The notes beneath the pieces are model-generated. The model saw nothing but the letters and a program-made list of their open reading frames with translations, was not told where the DNA came from and made no database searches. A stretch of DNA of 64,000 bases, from positions 744,001 through 808,000 of the forward strand of contig JANHCV010000010.1 of NCBI GenBank assembly GCA_025594325.1, written 5' to 3'. The first letter of the stretch is position 1, and every line of letters starts with the position of its first letter. A program made the position numbers and the translations under genes. This document shows positions 1 through 44,552 of the stretch, in pieces. The stretch comes from Blastocladiella emersonii ATCC 22665. Taxonomy: Eukaryota > Fungi > Blastocladiomycota.

Positions 1-55
1 TCGCAGCAATGGTTGCAGTCGACCGAGTCGGTTCCTGTCGTGTCAGCTCCACACT

Positions 56-493
56 GTGCGAGCATCTTCGCGGCTTCCTCGCATCGTGGACTCACCTCGT
101 GGTCGTTTAGCCGTCGCATGGTGGTTGGGGAGCGACAAGGGTGCCGAGAACACGGTCAACGGGCGCAAGCAGGGCGCCGCTCCCGGCAAGGACGGCACGT
201 TTGCGGCCAAGACGCGGAGCGAGCTGAGCATGCCCGTGTGGTTTGCGCGCTGGCTCGAGGTAGCGGCCAAGGCTAGGCACGACACATCGACGTGGTGCGT
301 TGTTCATCCGATGAGGGACCATGTCGACGGGATCTCGCTGATCCCGTCGCGGTGTAGGTCGCGATACTCCGACGCCAAGCTCGCGGCGGTGCAGTATCAG
401 GCAGCCAAGGCCCACCTGCGCCGCGAGAGCCCCGTCTTCGTCCACTGGGGCGGCAACAGGGCGTCACTCGACGACTTTTCGATAACGCAATAG
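56..493 (+). CDS. Possible 3' exon or fragment of an uncharacterised gene (second copy at 44060-44497, minus strand)
   Basis: Open frame only; no recognisable domain and no ATG at its start. Confidence 0.2.
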   Translation: MRASSRLPRIVDSPRGRLAVAWWLGSDKGAENTVNGRKQGAAPGKDGTFAAKTRSELSMPVWFARWLEVAAKARHDTSTWCVVHPMRDHVDGISLIPSRCRSRYSDAKLAAVQYQAAKAHLRRESPVFVHWGGNRASLDDFSITQ

Positions 494-636
494 AACCTTG
501 CAGCAGAGAATGTGGACTTTGGAAGCATCAGCGCGCCCATCACGAGGGCGTGATGTGGCGGGGGTGGCGCGATTCGGGTGCCTTGCCTTGACCGCACTGC
601 TTCGCCACAGCCGGCCCTCTCTCCCCTTGCCAACCC

Positions 637-3234
637 TTGCACATGAAAACAATGAATAAACCACCGCTGCTACTATCATCCCTGCCCGAGCACGCCATCG
701 CACTGATCGTCGCGCTGAGCACGCCGTCGGCCAAGCGGCTGCTCGCCTCCCGCGTCCTCGCCGACGCCGCCACGACCAGCCGTCTCCTGCTCCCACTCGT
801 CTGGTTCAACCGTGTCGGCGAGGCACTAGGCGACCTGCTCGTTGACGCCGCGCCCGACAAACTGCTCGACGTGAGCCGGATCCCCGAGTGGTCGACGCCG
901 CTCGCGCGGTGTGCCTGTGCCTCGATCGCACTGCGCGGCCGCTCCGACGCACCGCCGCGCCCGCCCCTCAACGGCGACATGTTCCACGCGCTGCTCCGCT
1001 CGTTCCTGCGCACCAGCAAGTCGAAGGCGTCGCTCGTCGAGCGCCAGCGCAAGCTGCTCGCCAAGGTGGCGCTCATGGAGCCCGACGACCGCGAGAGCAG
1101 CAACGAGGACGACGTGCCCGAGCCCGCCGCGAGTCTCGACGGTGCGGCGCCCCGCCCAACGGGCGCCGTGACGGGCTTCTTCACCGACGGTCTCGTGCTC
1201 GCGCTGTACCTCGAGGCGGTCGGCAACATGGCCGATCTCGACTCGGCGCTCGCCGCCATGGTGCGCAAGCTGCCCACTCTCGCTCTCGAGGGGAGAGCCC
1301 CGCTCAAGCGCATGCTCGAGTGGATCCCCGACCACACGCCCGAGGTCGCCAGGGACCTGGCCGACTTGCGCGAGGACCTCGAGGACCTCGAGGGCGACGA
1401 CTCGGACGACGACGCAGCCGAAGTGGAGGAACTCGCACTGGGACCACCGGCGGTGATCATTCAGAACGCGGGCGTGAACGTGTGCGTCGACTTTCTCTCG
1501 CTCGTCGCCATCTCGGCGGCCGTGCACATGAACCTGCCCGCGCTCGAGGCCGTCGCCAAGCGTCACCCTCGCTTCGATGCCGTCGTTTTGCGGGTTCTCG
1601 AGTTCGAGTGCGTGTACGCGTGCTTCCTCACCCACATCAGCATGCACCCGCTCGAGCAGACCATGGGCGTGCTCGACTGGCTTCGCGGGCGCGGCTGGGA
1701 CCCGCGCGGTGATCTCCCAATCAACGACCACGGCCACGGGCCGCCGCACTACTCGTACGTGATCAGCTACTACCTCGACCCGCTGCGCTCCGACGGGGCG
1801 GCCCTCGTGCGCGTGTTCGAGACGTACGACCGCGACCGCGACCGACTCGCTCCGCTTTTGGGGGATGGGCAGCGGCACCTGTTCTGCACCGCGCTCGCCG
1901 AGTGGGTCGAGCAGGGCCAGGTCGCGGCGGTCATCAAGGTCGCGCGCGCGTGGCCGTGGCTGCTCACGCCTCCGTACTGGGCGCCGCTCGTGACGCGCGC
2001 CGTCGCGGCCGGTCTCCCGCCCACGCAGGTCCGCACGATGCTCCTCGTTTCTGTCGCACCGACTGCCGGTACCTCACCAACGGGACCCGCACCAAGTCGC
2101 GTCGAGGCGGCCCGCCCGCTGCTCAACGCGATGCTGCGCGCCGTCGAGGAGCCGTACGGCGCGAGCCCCGGCCTCGTCACGCGCATCATCGCGCTCGCCG
2201 TCGAGCACTGCGGTGGTGCCGACGGAGCAGCCGAGATCGTCGTCGAGCGGCTCGACGTGATCGGCGACCGGCTGTTCGGGTACCACCTCGAGTCGCTCGG
2301 CCTCGGCGCCAAGAACGCGCGCACCAAGGTCGCGGCCCGCCTGCTCGAGCTGCTCGGCGACGACCACGCGCCCTTTTCGTACCAGTACTCGGGTGCGCTC
2401 GCCGCGTGCCTGATCCCGGTCCTCGTGTCACCGCACGCCAAGCACGTCCTCGACGCCATCACCACGACTGGCGACGCGGCGGCATCGCTGTCGCGGTGGT
2501 CGATCCTGTACTCGTCGTTTCTCGCGGCGGTCGCGACCGAGTGCGCTGGGCGCAACTGGGAGTCGCAGGTCCCGCGCGAGGACGGCCGCGAGCTGCAGAC
2601 CGACACGCGCACGATCCCGGCGTGGACCGCGCTCCTCGGGTACTGCGCGCCCGCCGCCGTCGCCTCAATGTCCGAGCCCGTCACCACTAAGACGGTCCGC
2701 TCGCTCGAGGTCGTGTGCAACGCGACGTACCCGACCTGGAAGGACAAGACCCGCGCCAAGCAGCGCGAGATGGCCGTCGCCGACAATTTTCTGCGCGCCG
2801 CGGCGCAGCACGCGCCGGCCGAGTTTGCGTCACTGCTCGCGCGGGTTGGTGGCGACCGCGACGAGGACGCGGGCCCGCAGTTCGTGCTCGGGTTCGCGCC
2901 CATGTTCCCCGAGGGCTCTCTCGACGGCGGCAGCATCGTGTCGCCCGCGTCGGTCGCGCGCCACCTGGTCCGGTACCTCGCGTCGTACGGTGACGTGGAC
3001 ACGGCGCACTTTCGCGGCGTCTTCCGCGCGTGTTTGGAGACGGCCGTGTCGCAGGAGTGTTTGCGGCTCGTGGCCAAGACGCTGATCGAGCGCCGCCGAC
3101 TCACGAGCGACGCGGTGATGCAGTTCGAGGCCAAGCTCGTGCCGCGCGTCCCCGGGCTCGCGGCGGCGTGGGCCGATGTCGTGGCCGCGGCGTGGGACCC
3201 GCCTCAAGCTGATGGTAGTGATGATGAAGAGTAG
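637..3234 (+). CDS. Uncharacterised 865-aa protein with an F-box-like N-terminus; intact copy of the gene disrupted by the virus
   Basis: Long ORF with strong GC3 bias; N-terminal LLSSLPEHAIALIV resembles an F-box start (inference). Confidence 0.8.
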   Translation: MHMKTMNKPPLLLSSLPEHAIALIVALSTPSAKRLLASRVLADAATTSRLLLPLVWFNRVGEALGDLLVDAAPDKLLDVSRIPEWSTPLARCACASIALRGRSDAPPRPPLNGDMFHALLRSFLRTSKSKASLVERQRKLLAKVALMEPDDRESSNEDDVPEPAASLDGAAPRPTGAVTGFFTDGLVLALYLEAVGNMADLDSALAAMVRKLPTLALEGRAPLKRMLEWIPDHTPEVARDLADLREDLEDLEGDDSDDDAAEVEELALGPPAVIIQNAGVNVCVDFLSLVAISAAVHMNLPALEAVAKRHPRFDAVVLRVLEFECVYACFLTHISMHPLEQTMGVLDWLRGRGWDPRGDLPINDHGHGPPHYSYVISYYLDPLRSDGAALVRVFETYDRDRDRLAPLLGDGQRHLFCTALAEWVEQGQVAAVIKVARAWPWLLTPPYWAPLVTRAVAAGLPPTQVRTMLLVSVAPTAGTSPTGPAPSRVEAARPLLNAMLRAVEEPYGASPGLVTRIIALAVEHCGGADGAAEIVVERLDVIGDRLFGYHLESLGLGAKNARTKVAARLLELLGDDHAPFSYQYSGALAACLIPVLVSPHAKHVLDAITTTGDAAASLSRWSILYSSFLAAVATECAGRNWESQVPREDGRELQTDTRTIPAWTALLGYCAPAAVASMSEPVTTKTVRSLEVVCNATYPTWKDKTRAKQREMAVADNFLRAAAQHAPAEFASLLARVGGDRDEDAGPQFVLGFAPMFPEGSLDGGSIVSPASVARHLVRYLASYGDVDTAHFRGVFRACLETAVSQECLRLVAKTLIERRRLTSDAVMQFEAKLVPRVPGLAAAWADVVAAAWDPPQADGSDDEE

Positions 3235-3366
3235 AGCTAAAGATTGATGTGTATACTTTGATTTTGGGGTCACACACACTGAGGTACACACGCAAGGGTC
3301 ACACGGCAGGAGGGGAAGGAACAACAGGAGGGAATCAAACACACAGGACGACTGACGGGCAGCAGC

Positions 3367-3783
3367 TTACTGGCGGTTCCACGAGTTGGCGTCGGCGGGG
3401 ACGGGCAGCTTGTCGGCCTGCGTGCCCGCGAAGCTGACGATCTTACACCCGCCCATGTGCGAGACGTTCATGTCGCGCGACTTGCCGGGGCACGTCCACG
3501 TCTGCGCGACCGACCACGTCGGCGTGACCTCCATGCGGATCGTGATGGCGTCGGCCTTGGCGTCGTACGACCAGGTGCCCTTGCCGCCGGCCTCGGGGCA
3601 CGGCGCGCGGAAGCAGCGCACGCTGGACGCCACCGTGAGCTTGCCGTCGGCGGCGAACGTGAGCGAGTGCATGGTGCCGGCCTTGTACGTGGCGGGGACC
3701 GGGAAGGGCGCCTTGGCGGCGGCGGCGGTGGCGGTCGCGACGAGGGCCAGGACGAGGGCGGCGAGGAAGGCGACGGCGTTCAT
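3367..3783 (-). CDS. Small secreted protein (138 aa, 4 Cys, CFRAPCP motif), copy 1
   Basis: Hydrophobic signal peptide MNAVAFLAALVLALVATATA, GC3-biased codons, upstream CTATAAAG box. Confidence 0.85.
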   Translation of the reverse strand: MNAVAFLAALVLALVATATAAAAKAPFPVPATYKAGTMHSLTFAADGKLTVASSVRCFRAPCPEAGGKGTWSYDAKADAITIRMEVTPTWSVAQTWTCPGKSRDMNVSHMGGCKIVSFAGTQADKLPVPADANSWNRQ

Positions 3784-4524
3784 GGTGGCGATGAGTGGTG
3801 CGGGAGCTTGGCTGCTTGGGCTGTTGGGTGAGGATCAGACGCCGAGAGAGCGAGGGGCGCGGCCGGTCTTTATAGGGCTCGGGTCTGCCTCTTGAACAGC
3901 TTCTCGAGCAGTGCTCGGCGCGACACGGCGGCAGAAGCCGACGCACTCGATGAAAGCCCTTTCAGCGGCGAGATTGGTTTGCTGCAGTCGGACCCCTTCT
4001 CGATCCCGGATCCAGTGCAACGGTGACCAGCCTGCCGTGAGGGGCTCGACATTTGCAGGACCCGGTGACGCTGGATGGTGGCGCAGCACGCGCTCGCGTT
4101 TCATCATGGCCCACGCTTCCCCGCTCTGTGGCCGCGCTACGCCCAACCTTGGCCCAACTCGGCAACCGTGCATGCAGGTCGATGCAGCCTGAAATGAGGG
4201 CAATCGATTAGGTGTTCTAAGAAAGTGCCGCGCTCCAAGAAACGTTCTCTCGGTGAAACGCGACCTGCCTTCCTTCGTTGAGGGTTGGAACGTTTGCTAA
4301 CGTGGCGTTTTGGACCTGGCGACGTCACACTCCGAACTAAGGGAACGAGTTCGAACTCACCGGTGGGGGTAAGGGCGGATCTTCTAACACAGCCGACCTG
4401 GTGTCGGGGACGCGTTGTTCATGATCAGCGGTGCTCACATGATTTCTCGACGCGTCTCTCGTTACTTACGAGCGCCCAGGGCAATTGAAAACATGAGCTC
4501 AAATTTCAAGGATCAGGAGACATG

Positions 4525-6896: not shown

Positions 6897-7182
6897 CGCG
6901 AGGGTTCGGTCTGTGTCGAGTTGCGGACAGCCCGAGCGGAGCGCGAGCGAAACGCGCGGAGCGGCGGCGTGCTCGGTTCACGCGTCATCTGACCTGTCTC
7001 ACAGTCACATGATATCCCGGCGCGTCTCCGACTGTCCCGCCCGCCCGAACGCGGTGACGTTCGGGGTCAATCACACGAAGGTCAGTGACAGAACGTGCTG
7101 GAGCTATTCGAGAGAAAGAACAGGCAGATTCTGAAGTATACTGAAGGACGGCAAGTGTATTCCAAATCCAACCGCGGCGCTC

Positions 7183-24090: not shown

Positions 24091-24098
24091 CTATAAAG
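24091..24098 (+). promoter_or_regulatory. TATA box (CTATAAAG) upstream of the secreted-protein gene
   Basis: 92 bp upstream of ATG 24183; the same octamer precedes both Cys-rich peptide genes (46530, 47755). Confidence 0.6.
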
Positions 24099-24182
24099 AC
24101 CGGCCGCGCCCCTCGCTCTCTCGGCGTCTGATCCTCACCCAACAGCCCAAGCAGCCAAGCTCCCGCACCACTCATCGCCACC

Positions 24183-24599
24183 ATGAACGCCGTCGCCTTC
24201 CTCGCCGCCCTCGTCCTGGCCCTCGTCGCGACCGCCACCGCCGCCGCCGCCAAGGCGCCCTTCCCGGTCCCCGCCACGTACAAGGCCGGCACCATGCACT
24301 CGCTCACGTTCGCCGCCGACGGCAAGCTCACGGTGGCGTCCAGCGTGCGCTGCTTCCGCGCGCCGTGCCCCGAGGCCGGCGGCAAGGGCACCTGGTCGTA
24401 CGACGCCAAGGCCGACGCCATCACGATCCGCATGGAGGTCACGCCGACGTGGTCGGTCGCGCAGACGTGGACGTGCCCCGGCAAGTCGCGCGACATGAAC
24501 GTCTCGCACATGGGCGGGTGTAAGATCGTCAGCTTCGCGGGCACGCAGGCCGACAAGCTGCCCGTCCCCGCCGACGCCAACTCGTGGAACCGCCAGTAA
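24183..24599 (+). CDS. Small secreted protein (138 aa), copy 2
   Basis: Translation identical to 3367-3783. Confidence 0.85.
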   Translation: MNAVAFLAALVLALVATATAAAAKAPFPVPATYKAGTMHSLTFAADGKLTVASSVRCFRAPCPEAGGKGTWSYDAKADAITIRMEVTPTWSVAQTWTCPGKSRDMNVSHMGGCKIVSFAGTQADKLPVPADANSWNRQ

Positions 24600-24731
24600 G
24601 CTGCTGCCCGTCAGTCGTCCTGTGTGTTTGATTCCCTCCTGTTGTTCCTTCCCCTCCTGCCGTGTGACCCTTGCGTGTGTACCTCAGTGTGTGTGACCCC
24701 AAAATCAAAGTATACACATCAATCTTTAGCT

Positions 24732-27245
24732 CTACTCTTCATCATCACTACCATCAGCTTGAGGCGGGTCCCACGCCGCGGCCACGACATCGGCCCACGC
24801 CGCCGCGAGCCCGGGGACGCGCGGCACGAGCTTGGCCTCGAACTGCATCACCGCGTCGCTCGTGAGTCGGCGGCGCTCGATCAGCGTCTTGGCCACGAGC
24901 CGCAAACACTCCTGCGACACGGCCGTCTCCAAACACGCGCGGAAGACGCCGCGAAAGTGCGCCGTGTCCACGTCACCGTACGACGCGAGGTACCGGACCA
25001 GGTGGCGCGCGACCGACGCGGGCGACACGATGCTGCCGCCGTCGAGAGAGCCCTCGGGGAACATGGGCGCGAACCCGAGCACGAACTGCGGGCCCGCGTC
25101 CTCGTCGCGGTCGCCACCAACCCGCGCGAGCAGTGACGCAAACTCGGCCGGCGCGTGCTGCGCCGCGGCGCGCAGAAAATTGTCGGCGACGGCCATCTCG
25201 CGCTGCTTGGCGCGGGTCTTGTCCTTCCAGGTCGGGTACGTCGCGTTGCACACGACCTCGAGCGAGCGGACCGTCTTAGTGGTGACGGGCTCGGACATTG
25301 AGGCGACGGCGGCGGGCGCGCAGTACCCGAGGAGCGCGGTCCACGCCGGGATCGTGCGCGTGTCGGTCTGCAGCTCGCGGCCGTCCTCGCGCGGGACCTG
25401 CGACTCCCAGTTGCGCCCAGCGCACTCGGTCGCGACCGCCGCGAGAAACGACGAGTACAGGATCGACCACCGCGACAGCGATGCCGCCGCGTCGCCAGTC
25501 GTGGTGATGGCGTCGAGGACGTGCTTGGCGTGCGGTGACACGAGGACCGGGATCAGGCACGCGGCGAGCGCACCCGAGTACTGGTACGAAAAGGGCGCGT
25601 GGTCGTCGCCGAGCAGCTCGAGCAGGCGGGCCGCGACCTTGGTGCGCGCGTTCTTGGCGCCGAGGCCGAGCGACTCGAGGTGGTACCCGAACAGCCGGTC
25701 GCCGATCACGTCGAGCCGCTCGACGACGATCTCGGCTGCTCCGTCGGCACCACCGCAGTGCTCGACGGCGAGCGCGATGATGCGCGTGACGAGGCCGGGG
25801 CTCGCGCCGTACGGCTCCTCGACGGCGCGCAGCATCGCGTTGAGCAGCGGGCGGGCCGCCTCGACGCGACTTGGTGCGGGTCCCGTTGGTGAGGTACCGG
25901 CAGTCGGTGCGACAGAAACGAGGAGCATCGTGCGGACCTGCGTGGGCGGGAGACCGGCCGCGACGGCGCGCGTCACGAGCGGCGCCCAGTACGGAGGCGT
26001 GAGCAGCCACGGCCACGCGCGCGCGACCTTGATGACCGCCGCGACCTGGCCCTGCTCGACCCACTCGGCGAGCGCGGTGCAGAACAGGTGCCGCTGCCCA
26101 TCCCCCAAAAGCGGAGCGAGTCGGTCGCGGTCGCGGTCGTACGTCTCGAACACGCGCACGAGGGCCGCCCCGTCGGAGCGCAGCGGGTCGAGGTAGTAGC
26201 TGATCACGTACGAGTAGTGCGGCGGCCCGTGGCCGTGGTCGTTGATTGGGAGATCACCGCGCGGGTCCCAGCCGCGCCCGCGAAGCCAGTCGAGCACGCC
26301 CATGGTCTGCTCGAGCGGGTGCATGCTGATGTGGGTGAGGAAGCACGCGTACACGCACTCGAACTCGAGAACCCGCAAAACGACGGCATCGAAGCGAGGG
26401 TGACGCTTGGCGACGGCCTCGAGCGCGGGCAGGTTCATGTGCACGGCCGCCGAGATGGCGACGAGCGAGAGAAAGTCGACGCACACGTTCACGCCCGCGT
26501 TCTGAATGATCACCGCCGGTGGTCCCAGTGCGAGTTCCTCCACTTCGGCTGCGTCGTCGTCCGAGTCGTCGCCCTCGAGGTCCTCGAGGTCCTCGCGCAA
26601 GTCGGCCAGGTCCCTGGCGACCTCGGGCGTGTGGTCGGGGATCCACTCGAGCATGCGCTTGAGCGGGGCTCTCCCCTCGAGAGCGAGAGTGGGCAGCTTG
26701 CGCACCATGGCGGCGAGCGCCGAGTCGAGATCGGCCATGTTGCCGACCGCCTCGAGGTACAGCGCGAGCACGAGACCGTCGGTGAAGAAGCCCGTCACGG
26801 CGCCCGTTGGGCGGGGCGCCGCACCGTCGAGACTCGCGGCGGGCTCGGGCACGTCGTCCTCGTTGCTGCTCTCGCGGTCGTCGGGCTCCATGAGCGCCAC
26901 CTTGGCGAGCAGCTTGCGCTGGCGCTCGACGAGCGACGCCTTCGACTTGCTGGTGCGCAGGAACGAGCGGAGCAGCGCGTGGAACATGTCGCCGTTGAGG
27001 GGCGGGCGCGGCGGTGCGTCGGAGCGGCCGCGCAGTGCGATCGAGGCACAGGCACACCGCGCGAGCGGCGTCGACCACTCGGGGATCCGGCTCACGTCGA
27101 GCAGTTTGTCGGGCGCGGCGTCAACGAGCAGGTCGCCTAGTGCCTCGCCGACACGGTTGAACCAGACGAGTGGGAGCAGGAGACGGCTGGTCGTGGCGGC
27201 GTCGGCGAGGACGCGGGAGGCGAGCAGCCGCTTGGCCGACGGCGT
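24732..27245 (-). pseudogene. Second copy of the 865-aa gene, interrupted near codon 29 by the viral insertion (5' part at 43828-43916)
   Basis: Matches 637-3234 from TPSAKRLL onward; the N-terminal codons lie beyond the element. Confidence 0.9.
27241..27245 (+). repeat. 5-bp target-site duplication GGCGT (second copy 43828-43832)
   Basis: The empty site at 721-725 (ACGCC) has one copy; both element flanks carry it. Confidence 0.97.
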
Positions 27246-28065
27246 TGTCGTATCCCTTAAGGGATACGACATGGGCTGACCCACTGCCACTTGGGCTGAC
27301 CAATTGCTTACCCCGAGCGGTCGGCGACAGTCACTCGGGGTAACCACGTGAGACCCCGTTGCTTACCCCGGGTGGTTAATAAAATGTCGGATTCAAATGT
27401 CGTGTTCCCTTAGGGAACACGACACGCGGACGGAGGCCGAAGGCCGAAGCAGGTGGGCGGGAGGGTGGGTGGAAGGGAGGGGGCGAGCGGTCCAGGAGTG
27501 AGTCCCTGACCTGACCCCCGAGCCTGTCCCTAACCAACCCCTTGGGCTGACCATTGCTTACCCCGAGCGGTCGGCGGCGGCCGGCGAGCGCAGCGAGACG
27601 AAGAGCAGCGCAGCTGCGGCTACCCACTGACAGAGTTCCCTGGTCTGGTCCCTGAGCACGGCTGCGAGTCGATCTGCGAGTTGATCTGCAAGACAAGTCC
27701 GAGAGCAGATCCCTGAGCCTGTCCCTGACCAACCACTCAGGCTGACCATTGCTTACCCCGAGCGGTTGGCGGCGGCCGGCGAGCGCAGCGAGACGAAGAG
27801 CAGCGCAGCTGCGGCTACCCACTGACAGAGTTCCCTGGTCTGGTCCCTGAGCACAGCTGCAAGTCGATCTGTGAGCAGCCCCCGAGCCAGTCCCTGACCA
27901 CCTGCCGCAAGCAGCTGCTATGAAGCCACTCACTGTAAAGTTCCACTTTCATGGCATATTACGACAGAGTATATATATACACTACCCTTTTTTGCCATGA
28001 AAGTGGAACTTTCAAAGACAAGAGGTCAGGGTACGGGGGGTCAGGGCAGGGGAGCGTCTTAGCAG
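27246..28065 (+). repeat. Left terminal inverted repeat
   Basis: Reverse complement of 43009-43827 apart from 3 substitutions and one 1-bp indel noticed; contains two ~195-bp-period internal repeats. Confidence 0.95.
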
Positions 28066-28089
28066 GCAGCGTCTTAGCAGGCAGCGTCT

Positions 28090-28240
28090 TAGCAGGAAGG
28101 GGCATGCCAGGTCGGGGGTGCCGGGTCAAGGAGGGTCGGGGGTGCCAGGTCGGGGGTGCCGGGTCAAGGAGGGTCGGGGGTGCCAGGTCAGGGGTGCCAG
28201 GTTGGGGGTGCCGGGTCAAGGAGGGTCGGGGGTGCCCGTT
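28090..28240 (+). repeat. G-rich minisatellite (GGTCGGGGGTGCCR-type units)
   Basis: About eight G-tract units, all on one strand. Confidence 0.8.
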
Positions 28241-28304
28241 GCTACGTCATGCCAAGTGCGTTGAATGCGTTTGTCAATTTAAACTTTGTTGGACTACTGT
28301 AACT

Positions 28305-28457
28305 ATGCGAGGCTGTATCAAAGAGATCGTCCCCCTGCCCAAGCCGCCATGCGATCACTATGATGCTCCCAGCTGGGTCCATGACAATGAGCTGCTGTGG
28401 GTCCAAGTTGTGTACCCGTGCTGCGGGCACAAGTACACATACCGCCGGGTAGTCTGA
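28305..28457 (+). CDS. Small viral ORF (50 aa, Cys/His-containing)
   Basis: MRGCIKEIVP...YPCCGHKYTYRRVV; preceded by TGTTG-N8-TAAC motif. Confidence 0.5.
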   Translation: MRGCIKEIVPLPKPPCDHYDAPSWVHDNELLWVQVVYPCCGHKYTYRRVV

Positions 28458-28717
28458 GAGCGACCAGTAAAGGCTTCAAGGTAGCTAACCAAGTTAACTT
28501 GAAGGATCTATTCAAAGCAGACAGTGTACACAACCTTGGCACCTGGCAGGGCCACGTCGCGGATGGCCGTGTAGTTGGCTGTCGACTGGGGGCCCGGATG
28601 GCCAGTCCAAGGGATGCTCGTGGAAGGTGCGCGGGGCGTTGATGCAGTAGAGCCAGTATTCATTGTCCTGTGTCTTACTATGCCTTCGCAGAAAGAATTT
28701 AAAGCACATGTCGTTGC

Positions 28718-28819
28718 TTACTCTACGGCGTGGAATACTTTGCTTGTGTACCTGACAATGGCCAGGTTGGCTACCAGGATCAGGGCGTTGGTGGCAACAA
28801 GGAGCGTCTCGAGGATCAT
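28718..28819 (-). CDS. Small hydrophobic viral peptide (33 aa)
   Basis: MILETLLVATNALILVANLAIVRYTSKVFHAVE; preceded by TGTTG-N8-TAAAC motif. Confidence 0.55.
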   Translation of the reverse strand: MILETLLVATNALILVANLAIVRYTSKVFHAVE

Positions 28820-28850
28820 GTTTACAGTACAACAACAATTAAAGTCAACG

Positions 28851-29594
28851 TCAGATGAACGCGAGCTCGACGTAGAAGGGTTGGCCAAGAAAGTCGACAG
28901 AGCGCAGGTTCTTGTCTACCACGTCAATGTCAATACAGTCAATCTGCTGGGCCTGTCCCTGCGCGTCAAAGCGAAAGTAGTCACCCATGTGTGGTCGATG
29001 CTCGAACCAGCTGCCAAAGGGTTGCGTGACGTGGATGCTACAAAGTACGCCGTTGTCTTGTGGGTACGCGCTGTACATGTTTTCCGCAAGCCGGGTGCCA
29101 AGGTTGCGCGAGTAGACGTGAAGCAGGTTGATGGGCGAGATGTTGACCAGCGCCGACGCGTACTGGACCTTGCTGTAGCCATACGCTCCAACAAAGCCCA
29201 TGTGGACGTTCAGCGACGCCGTCCCTGTTCCAATTGTAAAGTCGACCGTGTCGTTGGCCAGGCGCATCTTCTGGGTAGTCGAGTCAACCTGGACGTCCCA
29301 TGTGCCCTGCCAGAGGTACGCTGAGGGCGCGTTGTTGAGCAGGCTCTTGAGCGTGGCCGTGAACGTCTCGACCGTGTAGTTGCCATCAGGGACGGTGATG
29401 GTGCCCGGGAACGTCAGCGCGCCACGGCTCTGGGTCAGGTACACTTTGTTGGCCTTGGAGTTGACCGTGTGCCAGCTGTTGCAGAGGTACGCCGAGTTGA
29501 CCTTGACGCCGCGCACGGACAGGGGTCGTGGTAGGTACAGGATGCCGTTCTTGAGGTCGCGGCTGCAGATGGTCAGCGTCTTGTACTCGGACAT
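28851..29594 (-). CDS. Minor capsid protein (penton, single jelly roll)
   Basis: SRD N-terminus, ITVPDGNYT, MGF, and C-terminal IDIDVVDKNLRSVDFLGQPFYVELAF match the PLV/virophage penton pattern; adjacent to MCP. Confidence 0.8.
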   Translation of the reverse strand: MSEYKTLTICSRDLKNGILYLPRPLSVRGVKVNSAYLCNSWHTVNSKANKVYLTQSRGALTFPGTITVPDGNYTVETFTATLKSLLNNAPSAYLWQGTWDVQVDSTTQKMRLANDTVDFTIGTGTASLNVHMGFVGAYGYSKVQYASALVNISPINLLHVYSRNLGTRLAENMYSAYPQDNGVLCSIHVTQPFGSWFEHRPHMGDYFRFDAQGQAQQIDCIDIDVVDKNLRSVDFLGQPFYVELAFI

Positions 29595-29612
29595 TTAAAC
29601 AAAGACAACAAT

Positions 29613-29879
29613 TTATTGTACAGCTGTCCCCGTGTCGTCAGCGTCTGCCTCAAAGATCTCGCTCGTCGGTCGGTTGTACCAGGTGTGAATGTCTTGGGCA
29701 AGGTCCACGCCCTTGGTCACCATCTGCGCAATGGAGCTCACGGCGGGGTTGTGCGACCGCTCAAAGAACTTGGACACGGTCTTGACGCCTTTGAGGACGG
29801 TTGGCATGTGTTTGTTGACAAAGGACCCAACCTGGCCGAGCACATTGCTAAAGTTGGTCCAGAGGTTACGGAAGATCAT
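29613..29879 (-). CDS. Small amphipathic-helix protein, possibly membrane-lytic (protein VI-like)
   Basis: FRNLWTNFSNVLGQVGSFVNK amphipathic pattern; lies between MCP and penton. Confidence 0.6.
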   Translation of the reverse strand: MIFRNLWTNFSNVLGQVGSFVNKHMPTVLKGVKTVSKFFERSHNPAVSSIAQMVTKGVDLAQDIHTWYNRPTSEIFEADADDTGTAVQ

Positions 29880-29921
29880 GGCGGGGTTTAACTCTACGCA
29901 AGAAAAGAAAGGACAGGGCCG

Positions 29922-31142
29922 TTACTTGTAGATGTTGATCTCGCCGGTTGGCAGGAACTCGTAGACCACGTCGATGCCAATGAAGGCGTCCACGCGCTGG
30001 TTCGGGGCCACGCTTGAAGTCAGGATCACCTGCATGTCCACGGCCTGGCTCTTGCAAGACTTGTCGCCGCTGACCACGGTGCGACTTGACTCAAGGTCAC
30101 GGCCAACAACAAAGGTACCCTTGGCCAGCGCGTTGAACTTGTCGACTGTGAGGCCAGCGCCAATGACGTGGCCATGGAAGGCATTGGTCAGCTCAACGAA
30201 CGCCTCAGACGCGTAGTCGTCACATCGGATGGGTCGCTGAGGGAAGAGTCGGCCGGCCACGCTGAACTGGTACAATGTAATGGTCTTGGCACGAAGGAAC
30301 GAGTCCTTGGCATTGTTGTTGAGCACGGCATTGTTGCGGAACAACAGCAGGATGTCTTTCTGTGAGGCCGAGCGGTCCGAGATGTTGAGCGTTGAGTTGG
30401 GCACCGAGTAGTTCAGGAAGTGGTGGTTGTAGGTCGTGCCAAAGAGCTTGAGGCCCTGCTTCTTGAAGGCCGCGTCCATGACCGCGATCTGCTGGTCGTT
30501 GAGCTTGATCAGGTCCGAGACGATGCAGACGTCCTTGACTGTGTAGCCCGGGATGACATTGTTCTTGACAATGCAGGCGTCACTGCCAGGTGCGAGGGTG
30601 AACTCGACGCAGATGCCGCCCGTGTACTTCATTGGCAGGTGCTTCTGGTTTGCCAGCAGGGCCGACTTGATGGGCAGCATGTACCGGTGCAGCCTGGACA
30701 AGACGGCGAACTTGTCTGCGCCGGACGCAAAGTAGCCCTGTGCCACGCCGAGACACGAGTCCTTGAGGTACTGGGGGACCATCACGTCGGCCTCGATGCG
30801 CTGACGCAGGTTGTAGTACGGGAGCTCTTCGAGTAGGGCACCAGACGCGCTGTAGATGCGGACACGGTCAATGACGCTGAAGATACCATCGCAGAAAGCG
30901 ACGTTGGCGTCCGTGGTCTTGGCCGAGAACTGCAGGAAAGTACAGTGCGTGACCATCATGTTGTCGCGCGGCGGGAGCAGGACGCTGATGCTGTTGCCAG
31001 GAGCAAACTCGGGGCCGCCCTGAGCTGTGAACTGGACGGTCTGGCGCTCGGCATAGACGGACTCCTTGGGCAGGTTGAACGACATCTCGGGAGGGAGAGT
31101 CTTGGACAGGACCTGCGAGAACTGGGCGTTGGTACTGGACAT
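29922..31142 (-). CDS. Major capsid protein (double jelly roll, PLV-type)
   Basis: 406 aa, beta-rich; EFAPGNSISVLLP, SVIDRVRI, LPMKYTGGICVEFTLAP, YQFSVAGRLFPQRPI, FVVGRDLE; next to ATPase and penton. Confidence 0.85.
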   Translation of the reverse strand: MSSTNAQFSQVLSKTLPPEMSFNLPKESVYAERQTVQFTAQGGPEFAPGNSISVLLPPRDNMMVTHCTFLQFSAKTTDANVAFCDGIFSVIDRVRIYSASGALLEELPYYNLRQRIEADVMVPQYLKDSCLGVAQGYFASGADKFAVLSRLHRYMLPIKSALLANQKHLPMKYTGGICVEFTLAPGSDACIVKNNVIPGYTVKDVCIVSDLIKLNDQQIAVMDAAFKKQGLKLFGTTYNHHFLNYSVPNSTLNISDRSASQKDILLLFRNNAVLNNNAKDSFLRAKTITLYQFSVAGRLFPQRPIRCDDYASEAFVELTNAFHGHVIGAGLTVDKFNALAKGTFVVGRDLESSRTVVSGDKSCKSQAVDMQVILTSSVAPNQRVDAFIGIDVVYEFLPTGEINIYK

Positions 31143-31182
31143 GGTTTAGTTTAGGACTCGGCAACAAAAAAAAGTCAAGAGT

Positions 31183-31980: not shown

Positions 31981-32006
31981 TTAAAGACTGCCAACAAAAA
32001 AGGGCG

Positions 32007-33722: not shown

Positions 33723-33799
33723 GATGGTTACTGTATGGACCGAAAATAAAACGTCCCCCTGTCGGTACCTTTTTCCCCGTGGCAGGTGCCTTTTGTCCC

Positions 33800-34051
33800 T
33801 CAGACGGTGCTATTTGCCCCCTGGTCCCGGCGCTTGGCGTTGAGTGCCTTGTAGATCCGGATCTTGACCCGCTCTGCCCGCGCTGCCTCGTTGTCGACGT
33901 GCGTGTACCGGTTGGCCTTGTGGTCGCGCTTCCATAGCCACTTGGCCTTGTCCTCGTCGCTCTTGCTGTACCAGCTGCTTGGCACGGGCATGGTCCCGGC
34001 GAGGTGCTCCCGCCACTCGTCCAGGCTCAGGTCATGGTCGCTGGAAATCAT
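33800..34051 (-). CDS. Small basic viral protein (83 aa)
   Basis: Compact ORF divergent from the fibre gene and filling the intergenic gap. Confidence 0.55.
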   Translation of the reverse strand: MISSDHDLSLDEWREHLAGTMPVPSSWYSKSDEDKAKWLWKRDHKANRYTHVDNEAARAERVKIRIYKALNAKRRDQGANSTV

Positions 34052-34071
34052 TCTGTTGCTTAAGGTTAAAC

Positions 34072-36015
34072 ATGGTCAAGAATATCTTTAACGTCTCAAG
34101 TACTGCGTCTCCGACTGTGTCTACCACGGGGGTCCCGGACGTGTCCAAGGCCTACGTTGACGCAGCCATCAGTGCCGTGTACGCCACGGTTGGCACACCT
34201 GTTGCTGGCCCTGGCGTGGCAGTCTCAGGGACCACTGTGTCGGCCAAGGTCGACAACCAGACCCTTGGCGTGGGCGCAGCAGGGCTCTATGTCAAGTCGG
34301 TTGGCACGGCACAGCTGCTCCCGGCCAGCGTCACGGCCGACAAGGTCGCCACGATTACAGCAGGGCAGGTCACTGGCAAGCTCGTCGATGCTCAGCTGGA
34401 CACTGTGTCTGCGTCCAAGGTCGTGGGCGTGCTCAGTGCGTCCAACCTCCCAGCCGTCGGAACCTCGGTCCTGGCAGACGGCTCAGTGACAGATGCCAAG
34501 GTTGCGTCTGTGTCCGGGTCCAAGCTCGTGGCAGGCACAGTCGGGACCTCGGTCCTGGCAGACGGCTCAGTGACTGATGCCAAGGTCGCGTCCATGTCCG
34601 GGTCCAAGCTCGTGGCAGGCACGGTCGGCACAGCGGCTCTTGTTGACCTGGCAGTCACAGATGCCAAGGTCGCGTCCGTGTCTGGGTCCAAGCTCGTTGC
34701 AGGGACTATTGGGACGGGAGCCCTGGCAGACGGTGCCGTATCCAACGCCAAGGTGGCAGCTGGCATCGACGGGTCCAAGCTGGCAGCGGGCACGGTCGGC
34801 TCCCTGGTCCTGGCAGACGCGGCCGTGACCAACGCCAAGCTGGCAACTGGCATCGATGGGGGCAAGCTCAACGTTGGGTCCATTGGAACAGCCCACCTGG
34901 CAGCAGGCGCAGTCACGGACGCCAAGGTTGCGGACGTGTCGGCGGTCAAGCTCACTGGGATCCTCAACCCTGCCCGCATCGCCGACGGGACCCTGACCAA
35001 CGCCAAGCTGGCATCTGGCATTGACTCGGCCAAGCTTGCAGGGACCATTGACCTGGCACGACTCCCCGACGTCTCGGCCAAGGTCACGGCGGTGAGCGCA
35101 GCCTCGGTCGCTGGCACGCTCCCCCAGTCCACCCTTGGGCTTGGCGCTGCCTTTGCCTTTGCAAATACGACGGACAGTTTGACATCAAGCACTGGAGCAG
35201 TCACCATTGCTGGTGGTCTTGGAGTTGGCAAGCAACTGACTGTGCCCAACGTCCTGGTCCGGAATGCCACAAGCGCGAACCTTGTCTTTGACTCGGCTGC
35301 CAATACATTGACGTACGTCGACTTTAAGCAGGCAGGCGTACTGCGAAGCAACCTGGCATGCACAGCGGCAGGTAACATTGAGATTGCGTCTGCGACCACG
35401 GGCGGGGTCTCCCTTGTGGCAGGTGGCGGCAATGTGGTCGTGGGCTCGGCGACGCTTGGCACAGAAAGGTTCCGCGTCAATGGCACTGGTCGCTTCACAG
35501 GGCAGCTCACCCTTGACCTCGCTCCAGTGGCAGGCACCGACGCGGCAAACAAGGCGTACGTTGACTCGCGGTCTGGCACGACCCGGTACGTCGCTCAGGC
35601 CGAGCACCGCTCTACAAACGGAGTGACCACGGGCGGCAAGATCATTGGCGGCACAGCATCGACGGGCCCGGCCACCTTTGCGTTCCAGTCCACGGCGGGC
35701 GCGTTCACGTCTGTGATCAATGGATGCGTCAAACCCCCTGTCAGTGGCTACTACCTCGTCCATGCAAAGGGCTACTACGCAAACGGCGCGCTCCCTGGAG
35801 CCCACACTGTGAACTTTGCGCTGTACAATATGACGGACATGATTGCAGTGTCGCTTGTCACCGGGTGCCGCGCTGAAGGCAACGTCCAGTTCCTTCAGTT
35901 CTCGAGCATTGAGTACCTTGACGCGGCCAAGAGCTACTCTTTCATCTGGATCCCGTCGGTCGCAGTTGCCAACGACTGCCAGGTCATCATTCAAAGCCAC
36001 TGGACCCTGCTCTAA
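34072..36015 (+). CDS. Fibre/spike protein with 28-aa repeats
   Basis: VGTSVLADGSVTDAKVASVSGSKLVAGT repeats (84-bp period); DAANKAYVD motif typical of phage-type fibres. Confidence 0.8.
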   Translation: MVKNIFNVSSTASPTVSTTGVPDVSKAYVDAAISAVYATVGTPVAGPGVAVSGTTVSAKVDNQTLGVGAAGLYVKSVGTAQLLPASVTADKVATITAGQVTGKLVDAQLDTVSASKVVGVLSASNLPAVGTSVLADGSVTDAKVASVSGSKLVAGTVGTSVLADGSVTDAKVASMSGSKLVAGTVGTAALVDLAVTDAKVASVSGSKLVAGTIGTGALADGAVSNAKVAAGIDGSKLAAGTVGSLVLADAAVTNAKLATGIDGGKLNVGSIGTAHLAAGAVTDAKVADVSAVKLTGILNPARIADGTLTNAKLASGIDSAKLAGTIDLARLPDVSAKVTAVSAASVAGTLPQSTLGLGAAFAFANTTDSLTSSTGAVTIAGGLGVGKQLTVPNVLVRNATSANLVFDSAANTLTYVDFKQAGVLRSNLACTAAGNIEIASATTGGVSLVAGGGNVVVGSATLGTERFRVNGTGRFTGQLTLDLAPVAGTDAANKAYVDSRSGTTRYVAQAEHRSTNGVTTGGKIIGGTASTGPATFAFQSTAGAFTSVINGCVKPPVSGYYLVHAKGYYANGALPGAHTVNFALYNMTDMIAVSLVTGCRAEGNVQFLQFSSIEYLDAAKSYSFIWIPSVAVANDCQVIIQSHWTLL

Positions 36016-37124: not shown

Positions 37125-37152
37125 TGTATTAACAAAGGTGGAGACAAAAGGA

Positions 37153-38280: not shown

Positions 38281-38405
38281 GGTTTACTGACTGTCAACAA
38301 AAAGGCTCCATGGGCTCAAGTGCGTTTGAACGCAACGTTCTTTTTTCTGGGTAGCTGGGCCTGGGTCAGGGTCAGGGTGGTGGCAAGTCATGGACCGTGG
38401 GAGGG

Positions 38406-39720
38406 CCCAGGTCACGGTTTGAGAGGTTCGTGACCTCGGCCTCTGCTGGTGCCCAAGTCGGGGTCATGGGGGGGGGGGGTGGAGGTCCGGTTCTTCGCCG
38501 TCAGTCGCGTCCCAGGTCACGGTTTGAGCGGATCGTGACCTCGGCCTCGACTGGCTCCCAAGTTGAGCTCATGGGGGGTTCGTGACCTCGGCCTCTGCTG
38601 GTGCACAAGTCGGGGTCATGGGGGGTGGAGGTCCGGTTCTTCGCCATCAGTCGCGTCCCAGGTCACGGTTTGAGCGGATCGTGACCTCGGCCTCGACTGG
38701 CTCCCAAGTTGAGCTCATGGGGGGTTTGTGACCTCGGCCTCTGCTGGCGCCCAAGTCGGGGTCATGGGGGGTGGAGGTCCGGTTCTTCGCACTCAGTCGT
38801 GTCCCAGGTCACAGTTTGAGCGGATCGTGACCTCGGCCTCGACTGGCTCCCAAGTTGAGCTCATGGGGGGTTCGTGACCTCGGCCTCTGCTGGCGCCCAA
38901 GTCGGGGTCATGGGGGGTGGAGGTCCGGTTCTTCGCCCTCAGTTGTGTCCCAGGTCACGGTTTGAGCGGATCGTGACCTCGGCCTCGACTGGCTCCCAAG
39001 TTGGGCTCATGGGGGGTTTGTGACCTCGGCCTCTGCTGGCGCCCAAGTCGGGGTCATGGGGGGGGGAGGCCCGGTTCTTCGCCGTCAGTCGTGTCCCAGG
39101 TCACAGTTTGAGCGGATCGTGACCTCGGACCCTACTGGCTCCCAAGTTGGGCTCCTGGGGGGGTCTGTGACTTTGCCCTCAGTCGCTGCCCAGGTCACGG
39201 TTTGAGAGGTTCGTGACCTGAGACGCGATTGGCTCCCAAGTTGGGCTCCTGGGGGGTCCGTGACTTTGCCCTCAGTTGCTGCCCAGGTCACGGTTTGAGC
39301 GGGCCGTGACCTCGGCCTCTGCTGGCTCCCAAGTTGGGCTCCTGGGGGGTCCGTGACTTTGCCCTCAGTCGCTGCCCAGGTCACGGTTTGAGCGGGCCGT
39401 GACCTCGGCCTCTGCTGGCTCCCAAGTTTGGGCTCCTGGGGGGTCCGTGACTTTGCCCTCAGTCGCTGCCCAGGTCACGGTTCAAGGATCGTGACCTGAG
39501 ACGCGATTGGCTCCCAAGTTGGGCTCCTGGGGGTCTGTGACTTTGCCCTCAGTCGCTGCCCAGGTCACGGTTCAAGGATCGTGACCTCGGACCCTACTGG
39601 CTCCCAAGTTGGGCTCCTGGGGGGTCCGTGACTTTGCCCTCAGTCGCTGCCCAGGTCACGGTTCAAGGATTGTGACATCGGCCTCAACTGGCTCCCAAGT
39701 CGGGGTCATGGGGGAGGTCG
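38406..39720 (+). repeat. Tandem array of hairpin-containing units (4 x 146 bp, then ~6 x 90-94 bp, plus partial end units)
   Basis: CCCAGGTCAC starts at 38406, 38511, 38657, 38803, 38949, 39095, 39189, 39282, 39375, 39469, 39559, 39650. Confidence 0.95.
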
Positions 39721-39888
39721 TGTCTGGGTCAGGGACAGGTCACGCAAGGGCAGCCGGGCCTGGGTCAGGACAGTGGCAAGTCATGGGCCATGCCAACAAG
39801 GGCTCCCGGGTCACAGCCATTAGCGCTAAATCCTGCGCGTTTAAACGCACCTGCCCTGTCACCTTTTCTGTTACCTCATCATAACAAC

Positions 39889-42909: not shown

Positions 42910-43008
42910 GACAGTCCACGACCTGCCACGCTGCCTTCCTGCCTGCTAAGACGCTGCCTGCTAAGACGCTCCCTTGCCCTGACCCCTGTCCCGCCCAATA
43001 CATTGATG

Positions 43009-43827
43009 CTGCTAAGACGCTCCCCTGCCCTGACCCCCGTACCCTGACCTCTTGTCTTTGAAAGTTCCACTTTCATGGCAAAAAAGGGTAGTGTATATAT
43101 ATACTCTGTCGTAATATGCCATGAAAGTGGAACTTTACAGTGAGTGGCTTCATAGCAGCTGCTTGCGGCAGGTGGTCAGGGACTGGCTCGGGGGCTGCTC
43201 ACAGATCGACTTGCAGCTGTGCTCAGGGACCAGACCAGGGAACTCTGTCAGTGGGTAGCCGCAGCTGCGCTGCTCTTCGTCTCGCTGCGCTCGCCGGCCG
43301 CCGCCGACCGCTCGGGGTAAGCAATGGTCAGCCTGAGTGGTTGGTCAGGGACAGGCTCAGGGATCTGCTCTCGGACTTGTCTTGCAGATCAACTCGCAGA
43401 TCGACTCGCAGCCGTGCTCAGGGACCAGACCAGGGAACTCTGTCAGTGGGTAGCCGCAGCTGCGCTGCTCTTCGTCTCGCTGCGCTCGCCGGCCGCCGCC
43501 GACCGCTCGGGGTAAGCAATGGTCAGCCCAAGGGGTTGGTTAGGGACGGGCTCGGGGGTCAGGTCAGGGACTCACTCCTGGACCGCTCGCCCCCTCCCTT
43601 CCACCCACCCTCCCGCCCACCTGCTTCGGCCTTCGGCCTCCGTCCGCGTGTCGTGTTCCCTAAGGGAACACGACATTTGAATCCAACATTTTATTAACCA
43701 CCCGGGGTAAGCAACGGGGTCTCACGTGGTTACCCCGAGTGACTGTCGCCGACCGCTCGGGGTAAGCAATTGGTCAGCCCAAGTGGCAGTGGGTCAGCCC
43801 ATGTCGTATCCCTTAAGGGATACGACA
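43009..43827 (-). repeat. Right terminal inverted repeat
   Basis: Reverse complement of 27246-28065. Confidence 0.95.
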
Positions 43828-44552
43828 GGCGTGCTCAGCGCGACGATCAGTGCGATGGCGTGCTCGGGCAGGGATGATAGTAGCAGCGGTGGTTCATTCA
43901 TTGTTTTCATGTGCAAGGGTTGGCAAGGGGAGAGAGGGCCGGCTGTGGCGAAGCAGTGCGGTCAAGGCAAGGCACCCAAATCGCGTCACCCCCGCCACAT
44001 CACGTCCTCGTGATGGGCGCGCTGATGCTTCCAAAGTCCACATTCTCTGCTGCAAGGTTCTATTGCGTTATCGAAAAGTCGTCGAGTGACGCCCTGTTGC
44101 CGCCCCAGTGGACGAAGACGGGGCTCTCGCGGCGCAGGTGGGCCTTGGCTGCCTGATACTGCACCGCCGCGAGCTTGGCGTCGGAGTATCGCGACCTACA
44201 CCGCGACGGGATCAGCGAGATCCCGTCGACATGGTCCCTCATCGGATGAACAACGCACCACGTCGATGTGTCGTGCCTAGCCTTGGCCGCTACCTCGAGC
44301 CAGCGCGCAAACCACACGGGCATGCTCAGCTCGCTCCGCGTCTTGGCCGCAAACGTGCCGTCCTTGCCGGGAGCGGCGCCCTGCTTGCGCCCGTTGACCG
44401 TGTTCTCGGCACCCTTGTCGCTCCCCAACCACCATGCGACGGCTAAACGACCACGAGGTGAGTCCACGATGCGAGGAAGCCGCGAAGATGCTCGCACAGT
44501 GTGGAGCTGACACGACAGGAACCGACTCGGTCGACTGCAACCATTGCTGCGA
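43828..44552 (-). repeat. Arm 2 of the inverted duplication, part right of the virus
   Basis: Reverse complement of 1-725, with 4 substitutions noticed in 43890-44010. Confidence 0.95.

Follow-up and report, generated by a model that had tools for sequence, protein, structure and literature searches.

Introduction

It is an open question how a linear genome is copied to its ends in those polinton-like viruses (PLVs) and virophages that have no protein-primed polymerase. In parvoviruses, poxviruses and chloroviruses, a 3'-terminal palindrome can fold back and prime synthesis, and the end is reopened by nicking site-specifically at the palindrome's base. Palindromic ends are used differently by the telomere resolvases TelN and TelK (phages N15 and phiKO2), TelA (Agrobacterium) and ResT (Borrelia), which possess a tyrosine-recombinase-type domain and act on a palindromic target whose axis becomes the tip of a hairpin; all telomere resolvases known to us are bacterial or come from phages. 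Here we analyze an element of 16,582 bp, identified below as an integrated PLV, in a stretch of 64,000 nucleotides from the fungus Blastocladiella emersonii ATCC 22665 (contig JANHCV010000010.1, positions 744,001 to 808,000 of the forward strand; this whole stretch is referred to as the window), both termini of which are formed by one perfect 26-bp palindrome. An earlier, sequence-only reading of the window had proposed that these ends are hairpin telomeres made by the 375-aa tyrosine recombinase of the element and coupled to integration by its integrase.

Three described systems come closest to this element, each of them cited here from the accessible part of its source. Haro et al. (bioRxiv 10.64898/2026.07.28.741278) reported terminal palindromes in the endogenous virophages of Halocafeteria seosinensis (subtypes 1, 2, 5 and 6) as well as in subtype 4 of the PLVs, located within inverted repeats and beside target duplications. 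The palindromes are linked to replication genes other than the protein-primed polymerase, the hairpins are proposed to prime replication, and the PLVs covered in that part of the preprint do not carry the pair of recombinase and integrase. In Cafeteria burkhardae, EMALE types 5 to 8, with a medium content of guanine plus cytosine (GC), join an rve integrase, a tyrosine recombinase and a long primase/helicase and have no protein-primed polymerase (pPolB); the recombinase, it was suggested, may serve integration into giant virus genomes, and the main text, in its accessible part, mentions neither palindromes nor hairpins (Hackl et al. 2021, PMC8547959). The PLVs associated with entomopoxviruses possess a replicative "end module" composed of the inverted repeat, a primase-helicase and a tyrosine recombinase, the last of which could have a task at the ends, such as the resolution of dimers (Barth et al. 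2024, PMC11296320). Our literature search found no work treating polintons together with telomere resolvases and none joining Blastocladiella and polintons, and the Halocafeteria preprint was the only source found on terminal palindromes in polinton-like elements; as far as its accessible part goes, it is there alone, and for one protist, that such palindromes have been offered as the answer to the end-copying question.

Results

The borders of the element and its 5-bp target duplication can be given to the exact base because the same window contains an uninterrupted copy of the target. Bases 1 to 729 are the reverse complement of 43823 to 44552 (99.3%), and bases 721 to 4328 are the reverse complement of 23638 to 27245 (99.9%); this empty site holds one GGCGT (721 to 725) and no leftover palindrome, whereas the occupied site has GGCGT on both sides of the element. 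The element accordingly extends from 27246 to 43827, begins with 5'-TG and terminates in CA-3', and the outer edge of the palindrome is its last base. Its GC content is 59.3%, compared with 66.6% for the rest of the window. The element-free copy of the flanks, which reaches beyond the window start, stems either from a recent inverted segmental duplication older than the insertion or from two haplotypes joined in assembly.

The claim of the sequence-only reading that a perfect 26-bp palindrome forms both termini proved correct. The terminal palindrome, P1 (TGTCGTATCCCTTAAGGGATACGACA, with halves TGTCGTATCCCTT and AAGGGATACGACA), is present at both tips with 0 mismatches, is identical to its own reverse complement (13+13 layout, axis between TT and AA, at 27258|27259 in the left copy, centre CTTAAG) and ends at the borders set by the empty site. 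On each strand, the CA-3' to be joined by the integrase is located 13 nt from the axis, again as had been stated. No third copy was found in the 64-kb window with up to 3 mismatches tolerated (0.00 expected from 100 shuffles). P1 is the longest perfect palindrome of the 64 kb, the runners-up measuring 16 bp, and in 200 mononucleotide shuffles of the window the maximal half-palindrome was 11 (reached in 3 of the 200), with 13 in none. It is the outer tip of each terminal inverted repeat, accounting for 26 of the 794 bp, and a base-by-base comparison of the two arms yielded 3 mismatches (at 27388, 27525 and 27767). A palindrome that lies inside an inverted repeat and abuts the target-site duplication, the arrangement described by Haro et al., is therefore present here.

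When folded as single-stranded DNA, P1 is predicted to pair over 11 bp around a loop of 4 nt (-10.8 kcal/mol; z -7.06 against shuffles), and the 3'-terminal 195 nt are predicted to form a row of hairpins (-51.8 kcal/mol; z -6.97), a value equalled by 0 of 200 shuffles. As in replicons that use rolling hairpins, the 3' end is formed by a palindrome able to fold back.

When the sequence was scanned for stems of 9 bp or more enclosing loops of 0 to 10 nt, one further palindrome with 13-bp arms emerged, P2 (TGTCGTGTTCCCT-T-AGGGAACACGACA; 13+1+13), which is mirrored in the two inverted repeats and lies 152 bp inside each end. The outer TGTCGT/ACGACA and the inner CCCT/AGGG are common to P1 and P2, whereas the middle reads AT in P1 and GTT/AAC in P2, changed complementarily on both arms, and the centre of P2 is one base shorter, so that the gaps in and between the half-sites are 2-2-2 nt in P1 and 3-1-3 nt in P2. 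The half-site TGTCGT-N(1-4)-CCCT occurs 8 times in the window (0.38 expected), all inside the four P1 and P2 palindromes. As a single strand, P2 folds with a predicted -13.2 kcal/mol (z -7.63 against shuffles). Since P2 has perfect 13-bp arms despite a middle that differs from that of P1, its dyad symmetry has been kept through change. Such symmetry, retained through concerted change, argues for function; alone, it does not separate a hairpin from a site bound by a protein dimer.

The read data consisted of assembled contigs from four public runs of one sample, in which molecule ends and strand switches are not visible. Several contigs depart from the window sequence exactly at 27246 (7 in X1 and 5 in X3) and their flanks agree poorly (0.46 and 0.52); therefore, the same tip is present at several insertion sites. 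The summed contig depth of the element, roughly 10 to 30 times that of the left flank and not to be taken as a copy number, fits a multi-copy family. No strand change at the palindrome axis is found among the contig joints listed, such one-sample contigs being uninformative on free forms. One contig of X4 (depth 6.1) fuses 27268 to 27431, that is, P1 straight to the sequence behind P2, and some family copies may be without the 162 bp between them; a second X4 contig terminates in a variant tip, TGCCGTATCCCT.

The model of the 375-aa recombinase, predicted with AlphaFold2 (AF2) at a predicted local distance difference test (pLDDT) score of 70.5, has the two-domain fold (core-binding plus catalytic) of the Xer, Cre and lambda Int type. 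In a Foldseek search against PDB, the matches were weak and nearly all to the recombinase superfamily, among them XerA (E 4.7e-3, prob 0.99), lambda Int (E 8.0e-3) and, at rank 4, TelA (E 8.9e-3, prob 0.94). The VIA ranking by Z placed XerA (9.7; 228 aligned), XerH (9.2) and Brujita Int (8.9) before Cre (8.7; 234 aligned, root mean square deviation 6.8), topoisomerase IB (8.5) and IntI (8.2), and a wide search of 48,161 chains gave the same leaders, its first 20 rows containing nothing but recombinases, integrases, topoisomerases IB and DNA-binding domains related to them. The best 50 entries of each Z-ranked list include no telomere resolvase, an absence that does not amount to exclusion. In an alignment of 13 sequences, R228, K259, H362 and Y371 are invariant and R340 is nearly so (90% or more); we take these five residues to be the tyrosine-recombinase catalytic set. 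The fold together with the invariant Y371 is also what the catalytic domain of a resolvase would display. The sequence-only reading had called for a comparison of the predicted structure with telomere resolvases and with Xer and Cre, and its outcome does not favor the proposal made there, as the proteins to which the model comes nearest are Xer, Cre, IntI, phage integrases and topoisomerase IB (Z 9.7 to 8.0). The modeling thus supports a tyrosine-recombinase fold and lends no support to a special likeness to telomere resolvases.

The recombinase belongs to a very divergent family. It has no match in Pfam, PHROG or the PDB sequences, and the sole match of a profile built from the 13-sequence alignment was a deacetylase (E 0.068), which we regard as chance. 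Five matches were found among 1.84 billion representatives, namely, P0006, P0008 and P0009 from Blastocladiella emersonii, the Logan protein P0010, and P0011 (E 6.7e-4).

The neighboring gene encodes a retroviral-type integrase of 370 aa. A phmmer search of PDB matched the integrase cores of human T-lymphotropic virus 2 (HTLV-2), prototype foamy virus and human immunodeficiency virus (87 sequences at E<=1; best E 4.7e-5, HTLV-2), while the Pfam rve score of 24.2 bits lies under the cut-off of 32.6. Alignment with the HTLV-2 core points to D92, D148 and E179 as the DDE residues, and the motifs TDNG and VERxNG are present. An rve integrase is thus indicated by its DDE core as well as by the TG...CA ends and the short target duplication of the element. 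The co-occurrence of this enzyme with a protein of the tyrosine-recombinase type, asserted in the sequence-only reading, is borne out by phmmer and Pfam for the former and by the fold searches for the latter.

The element is an integrated PLV (Preplasmiviricota) of a zoosporic fungus, an assignment that follows from the capsid fold, the packaging ATPase, the integrase, the recombinase, the predicted primase-helicase and the absence of a polymerase match. It combines several of the features that define a PLV: a double-jelly-roll capsid protein, an A32/FtsK-type ATPase, inverted repeats with a target duplication, and an integration enzyme. The AF2 model of the capsid protein has a low pLDDT (54.9), and in BFVD it yielded 149 Foldseek matches at E<=0.001 (best 5.6e-15), of which the named ones are major capsid proteins; a feature lead from Atlas likewise points the 406-aa open reading frame (ORF) to a capsid. 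The packaging ATPase matches PF04665 (Pox_A32) with E 1.5e-11 and 44.7 bits (cut-off 22.8). For the 1039-aa ORF, the Atlas lead groups it with PriCT_2, Herpes_ori_bp and ResIII, mostly from Preplasmiviricota (score 0.99); its motifs were read by eye, and it has no match in Pfam or the PDB sequences. Among 12 ORFs scanned with Pfam, none matched a DNA polymerase family, the protein-primed one included, or an HUH-type nicking initiator. The ORFs of the element are open, and the host is a laboratory fungus that grows in culture. The positions of all these features are given in Table 1.

Table 1. Positions in the window of the element's ends, its genes and the surrounding target-site features
Feature	Position	Strand	Basis or remark
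Element-free inverted duplicate of both host flanks (empty site)	1..4328	-	Single GGCGT at 721-725
Left target-site duplication, GGCGT, 5 bp	27241..27245		Single in the empty site, doubled around the element
Left terminal inverted repeat, 794 bp	27246..28039		3 mismatches against the right arm
P1, left tip	27246..27271		13+13, axis between TT and AA
P2, left	27398..27424		Stem scan, folding
ORF of 247 aa beside the capsid gene	28851..29594	-	Minor capsid (penton) guess, from position only
Major capsid protein, double-jelly-roll, 406 aa	29922..31142	-	AF2 model, BFVD Foldseek
A32-type DNA-packaging ATPase, 265 aa	31183..31980	-	Pfam PF04665 Pox_A32
Fibre-like protein, 678 aa, with 84-87-bp repeats	33979..36015	+	Pfam, PHROG, repeat search
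Retroviral-type (rve, DDE) integrase, 370 aa	36012..37124	-	PDB phmmer, Pfam
Tyrosine-recombinase-fold protein, 375 aa	37153..38280	-	Long N-terminal helix (3-52) and two-domain core (~77-375)
Tandem array	38328..39722		146-bp then 93-bp units, between the divergent recombinase and primase-helicase genes
Predicted primase-helicase, 1039 aa	39790..42909	+	Atlas (language-model) feature lead only
Right terminal inverted repeat	43034..43827		Repeat search and base-by-base comparison
P2, right-arm copy	43649..43675		Stem scan
P1, right tip	43802..43827		Exact P1 copy
Right target-site duplication, GGCGT	43828..43832		Empty-site comparison

Proteins 98-100% identical to the recombinase and the capsid protein are found in Blastocladiella emersonii ATCC 22665, together with many diverged paralogues on different contigs (recombinases of the more distant copies 36-66% identical), which ruled out a Cafeteria EMALE as the identity of the element; a bacterial transposon of the Tn7/Tn5053 type was ruled out by the Pox_A32 match and the capsid fold. 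The capsid protein and the recombinase have no sequence similarity beyond their own small family. Searches of metagenome and viral contigs for related loci found none with the capsid alignment, and none were found with the recombinase alignment, protein P0026 or the primase-helicase as the query; the integrase gave 1 tblastn relative and 0 loci. The exact palindrome and two degenerate dyad patterns had 0 matches in viral contigs.

Among the remaining genes, the 678-aa protein matches Phage_Tail_Tip in Pfam (3.5e-10) and a tail fibre family in PHROG (2.7e-9); the repeats of 28 to 29 aa responsible for this likeness to bacteriophage tail fibres are unusual in a eukaryotic virus-like element. The 247-aa ORF has no match in Pfam or PHROG. 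The 1.4-kb tandem array fills the entire intergenic space between its two neighbors, and each of its units contains 9-bp inverted arms (AGGTCACGG/CCGTGACCT) around a 10-nt spacer, which makes it a candidate for iterons or regulator sites.

The inverted repeats contain further repeated sequences. In the inner part of each lies a 76-bp dyad (27937-28012 and 43061-43136) with 20-bp arms (AAAGTTCCACTTTCATGGCA and its complement) and an AT-rich centre containing TATATATATA, suggestive of an origin or of a divergent promoter. Within the inverted repeats lies a direct repeat of 195 bp (1.8 copies; 27501-27875), and short tandem repeats occupy their inner borders (28053-28236 and 42939-42974), with a 15-bp unit, AGCGTCTTAGCAGGC, and G-rich units of 14/38 bp, the two ends differing in this respect. 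An open frame of 871 aa (24732-27347, minus strand) begins in the left inverted repeat and crosses the palindrome into the host flank; it has no family match, the protein search gave no candidate, and the frame most likely exists by chance, the DNA being rich in GC. The host flanks encode proteins with leucine-rich repeats, ankyrin repeats and SH3 domains as well as a glycosyltransferase. Between the duplicated flank and the host-like genes, the stretch from 4400 to 10000 has a GC content of 57-60% and four ORFs of 346-456 aa without a Pfam match; it may be another foreign element.

Discussion

We consider it likely that this PLV has hairpin-forming ends. The mechanism that we favor, in which the ends are copied by hairpin priming and reopened by the integrase and in which the recombinase is not needed, is proposed tentatively, and as a whole it has in our estimate slightly less than an even chance of being right. 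The free genome would be linear. Because no gene for a protein-primed polymerase was found in the element, we infer that the 3' strand ending in ...GGGATACGACA-3' folds on itself, giving an 11-bp stem and a TTAA loop; the folded 3'-OH, paired beside its own template, would prime synthesis inward, as in rolling-hairpin replication, and the end would be replicated without a terminal protein. The palindrome would present the end sequence of the integrase on both strands, 13 nt to either side of the axis, so that a cut after CA, 13 nt past the tip, would reopen an end that had been closed or turned around. The resulting CA-3'-OH could be extended, which would restore the complete duplex palindrome by copying the hairpin, or else it could be linked to a target, and gap repair after joining would produce the full 26-bp palindrome seen at the integrated ends. 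A single nuclease specificity would thereby serve both end resolution and integration, making a telomere resolvase unnecessary, and the likelier role of the recombinase would be a conventional one, such as resolving dimers or concatemers that arise in replication, or site-specific integration or excision at other places.

This mechanism retains the geometry put forward in the sequence-only reading and dispenses with the recombinase. The coupling of palindromic hairpin ends to integration, as claimed there, can be kept in part: hairpin termini have been published as a proposal for related virophages and PLVs, according to the accessible part of that work (10.64898/2026.07.28.741278), whereas the resolvase role of the recombinase is unsupported and is not needed in the model.

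Several observations weigh against the hairpin-priming mechanism: (i) free or replicating DNA was not seen, the data being assembled contigs of one sample, blind to ends and strand switches; (ii) P2, at 152 bp from the terminus, cannot prime from there, and a dyad-binding protein therefore accounts for P1 and P2 together at least as simply; (iii) the 12 ORFs scanned yielded no dedicated nickase, and the reopening of hairpins by the integrase is pure inference; (iv) the evidence for symmetry comes from this one copy of the element; and (v) the absence of a polymerase rests solely on missing matches. The 11-bp stem is, moreover, short beside the hairpins of parvoviruses. The same holds beside the 52-nt palindromes of Halocafeteria subtype 5, as given in the accessible part of the preprint. 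Four other explanations of the palindromes were weighed against hairpin priming.

The strongest of them assumes that a protein dimer binds P1 and P2 as dyad-symmetric sites, the protein being either the integrase or another DNA-binding protein encoded by the element, that no hairpin is ever formed, and that the terminal site positions the CA cut. Multiple transposase-binding sites are found in the ends of Mu and Tn7. Such a role would explain why each element has four sites with TGTCGT...CCCT half-sites and the 64 kb has none elsewhere, and why P2 is placed internally, where a priming hairpin would be useless; the outer half of P1 is by definition the end sequence of the integrase. On the other hand, the change in half-site spacing from 2-2-2 to 3-1-3 nt would be poorly tolerated by a rigid dimer and is irrelevant to a hairpin, and perfect 13-bp complementarity on both arms exceeds what protein recognition usually needs. 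The Halocafeteria palindromes, in the accessible account of them, also associate with the type of replication gene, which again disfavors a pure binding site. We regard dimer binding as a serious if rather unlikely alternative to hairpin priming.

A conventional tyrosine-recombinase reaction would be a different use of the same symmetry, with P1 (and P2) as core sites in tip-to-tip circularisation or excision, in dimer resolution, or in integration into the genome of a helper giant virus. The layout of the palindrome, read as 10-6-10 or 9-8-9, suits a core site, and the recombinase gene lies in an "end module" beside the primase-helicase and the right inverted repeat, as it does in other PLVs (PMC11296320, accessible part). 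The contig of X4 that joins 27268 to 27431, without the stretch between P1 and P2, also agrees with core sites. However, a fully symmetric spacer gives recombination no direction, the centres of P1 and P2 are unequal in length, core-site recombination does not require the edge of the palindrome to coincide exactly with the end made by the integrase, and no palindrome is left over at the empty site. These points make core sites improbable.

We judge it about equally doubtful, or slightly more so, that the recombinase is a telomere resolvase, which would cut a replicated head-to-head junction between TT and AA and seal covalently closed hairpins, after which the integrase would cut at the CA 13 bp beyond the axis. 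Several features agree with this proposal: a perfect palindrome with the symmetric centre CTTAAG, of a size that suits two recombinase monomers (arm-spacer-arm); the tyrosine-recombinase fold, with R228, K259, R340, H362 and Y371 invariant or nearly so; a weak Foldseek match to TelA (rank 4, E 8.9e-3, prob 0.94); and a geometry that reproduces the integrated end. Barth et al. 2024 (PMC11296320), in the part accessible, also propose that recombinases act at the ends of PLVs and poxviruses, for dimer resolution. Against these stand the best structural matches, which are to Xer, phage integrases, Cre and IntI (Z 9.7 to 8.0), the internal position of P2, which cutting at an axis does not explain, and the lack of evidence for closed ends. 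Terminal palindromes also occur in the PLV subtype of Halocafeteria, although the PLVs described in the accessible part of that preprint are said to be without the recombinase. The claim that the recombinase makes the hairpins is consequently unsupported. The further claim that hairpin resolution explains why the element carries both enzymes fares no better, as the pairing has other published explanations, at least in the accessible parts of the sources, namely, integration into giant viruses (PMC8547959) and dimer resolution (PMC11296320). Were the proposal true, the orphan 375-aa protein would be the first telomere resolvase of a eukaryotic virus and the integrase would reopen its sealed hairpins 13 nt past the tip, a combination that we hold to be just as doubtful; the maintenance of hairpin telomeres and chromosomal integration would then be coupled via one palindrome.

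That the palindrome is a functionless by-product, for example of snap-back synthesis at a broken end that became fixed in one lineage, is very improbable: the Halocafeteria authors do name accidental annealing after single-strand breaks as an alternative (accessible part), but the palindrome is identical at both ends, the same tip recurs at several insertion sites, a second palindrome has kept concerted changes in both arms, and similar ends recur in unrelated hosts, as far as the available account of them extends.

New in this locus are (i) the occurrence of this type of end in a fungus, in an element lineage whose capsid and recombinase have almost no public relatives; (ii) borders exact to the base, set by an empty site in the same window; (iii) a second palindrome that keeps its symmetry through concerted change; and (iv) the symmetric placement of the integrase's CA cut site on both strands, which leads to the simple model in which one enzyme would both reopen hairpins and integrate.

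Compared with telomere resolvases and their targets, the element is alike in having a tyrosine-recombinase-type catalytic domain and a palindromic site, and unlike them in that the model is nearer to Xer and Cre than to TelA and in that the integrated form has no more than 13 bp past the axis. Coupling of the ends to a telomere resolvase is possible, if unsupported. Rolling-hairpin replicons share with it a palindrome at the 3' end that can fold back; here, in contrast, no HUH nickase was found among the ORFs scanned, the inverted repeats measure 794 bp, the hairpin falls far short of theirs in length, the genome is presumably double-stranded, and the proposed nickase is a DDE integrase. As the element has no detected HUH initiator, the comparison is one of working in a similar way and not of membership.

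The PLVs associated with entomopoxviruses share the gene order at one end, where a primase-helicase and then a tyrosine recombinase follow the inverted repeat; unlike the present element, the module described for them, in the accessible part of that article, includes no rve integrase, and a terminal palindrome is not mentioned there (PMC11296320). EMALE types 5 to 8 resemble it in their inverted repeats, their short target duplications (mostly 3-5 bp), the same three enzymes, of which the primase-helicase is a prediction here, and a GC content below that of the host (roughly 70% in their case), and differ as virophages that carry a protease, which was not detected in this element (PMC8547959, accessible part).

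The closest likeness in the ends themselves is to the Halocafeteria elements, which, as described in the accessible part of the preprint (10.64898/2026.07.28.741278), also combine a palindrome in an inverted repeat abutting a target duplication with an rve integrase and, for replication, a gene that is not the protein-primed polymerase, predicted in our case. The palindrome of the present element differs in comprising 26 bp without a spacer, against 52 nt in their subtype 5, and is accompanied by a related second palindrome, 152 bp inward from each end; the host is a fungus, and this PLV also encodes a tyrosine recombinase, which PLVs do not carry according to the preprint. To conclude, both the element and the type of its ends fall within a recently described kind, now with a fungal host and an extra internal palindrome.

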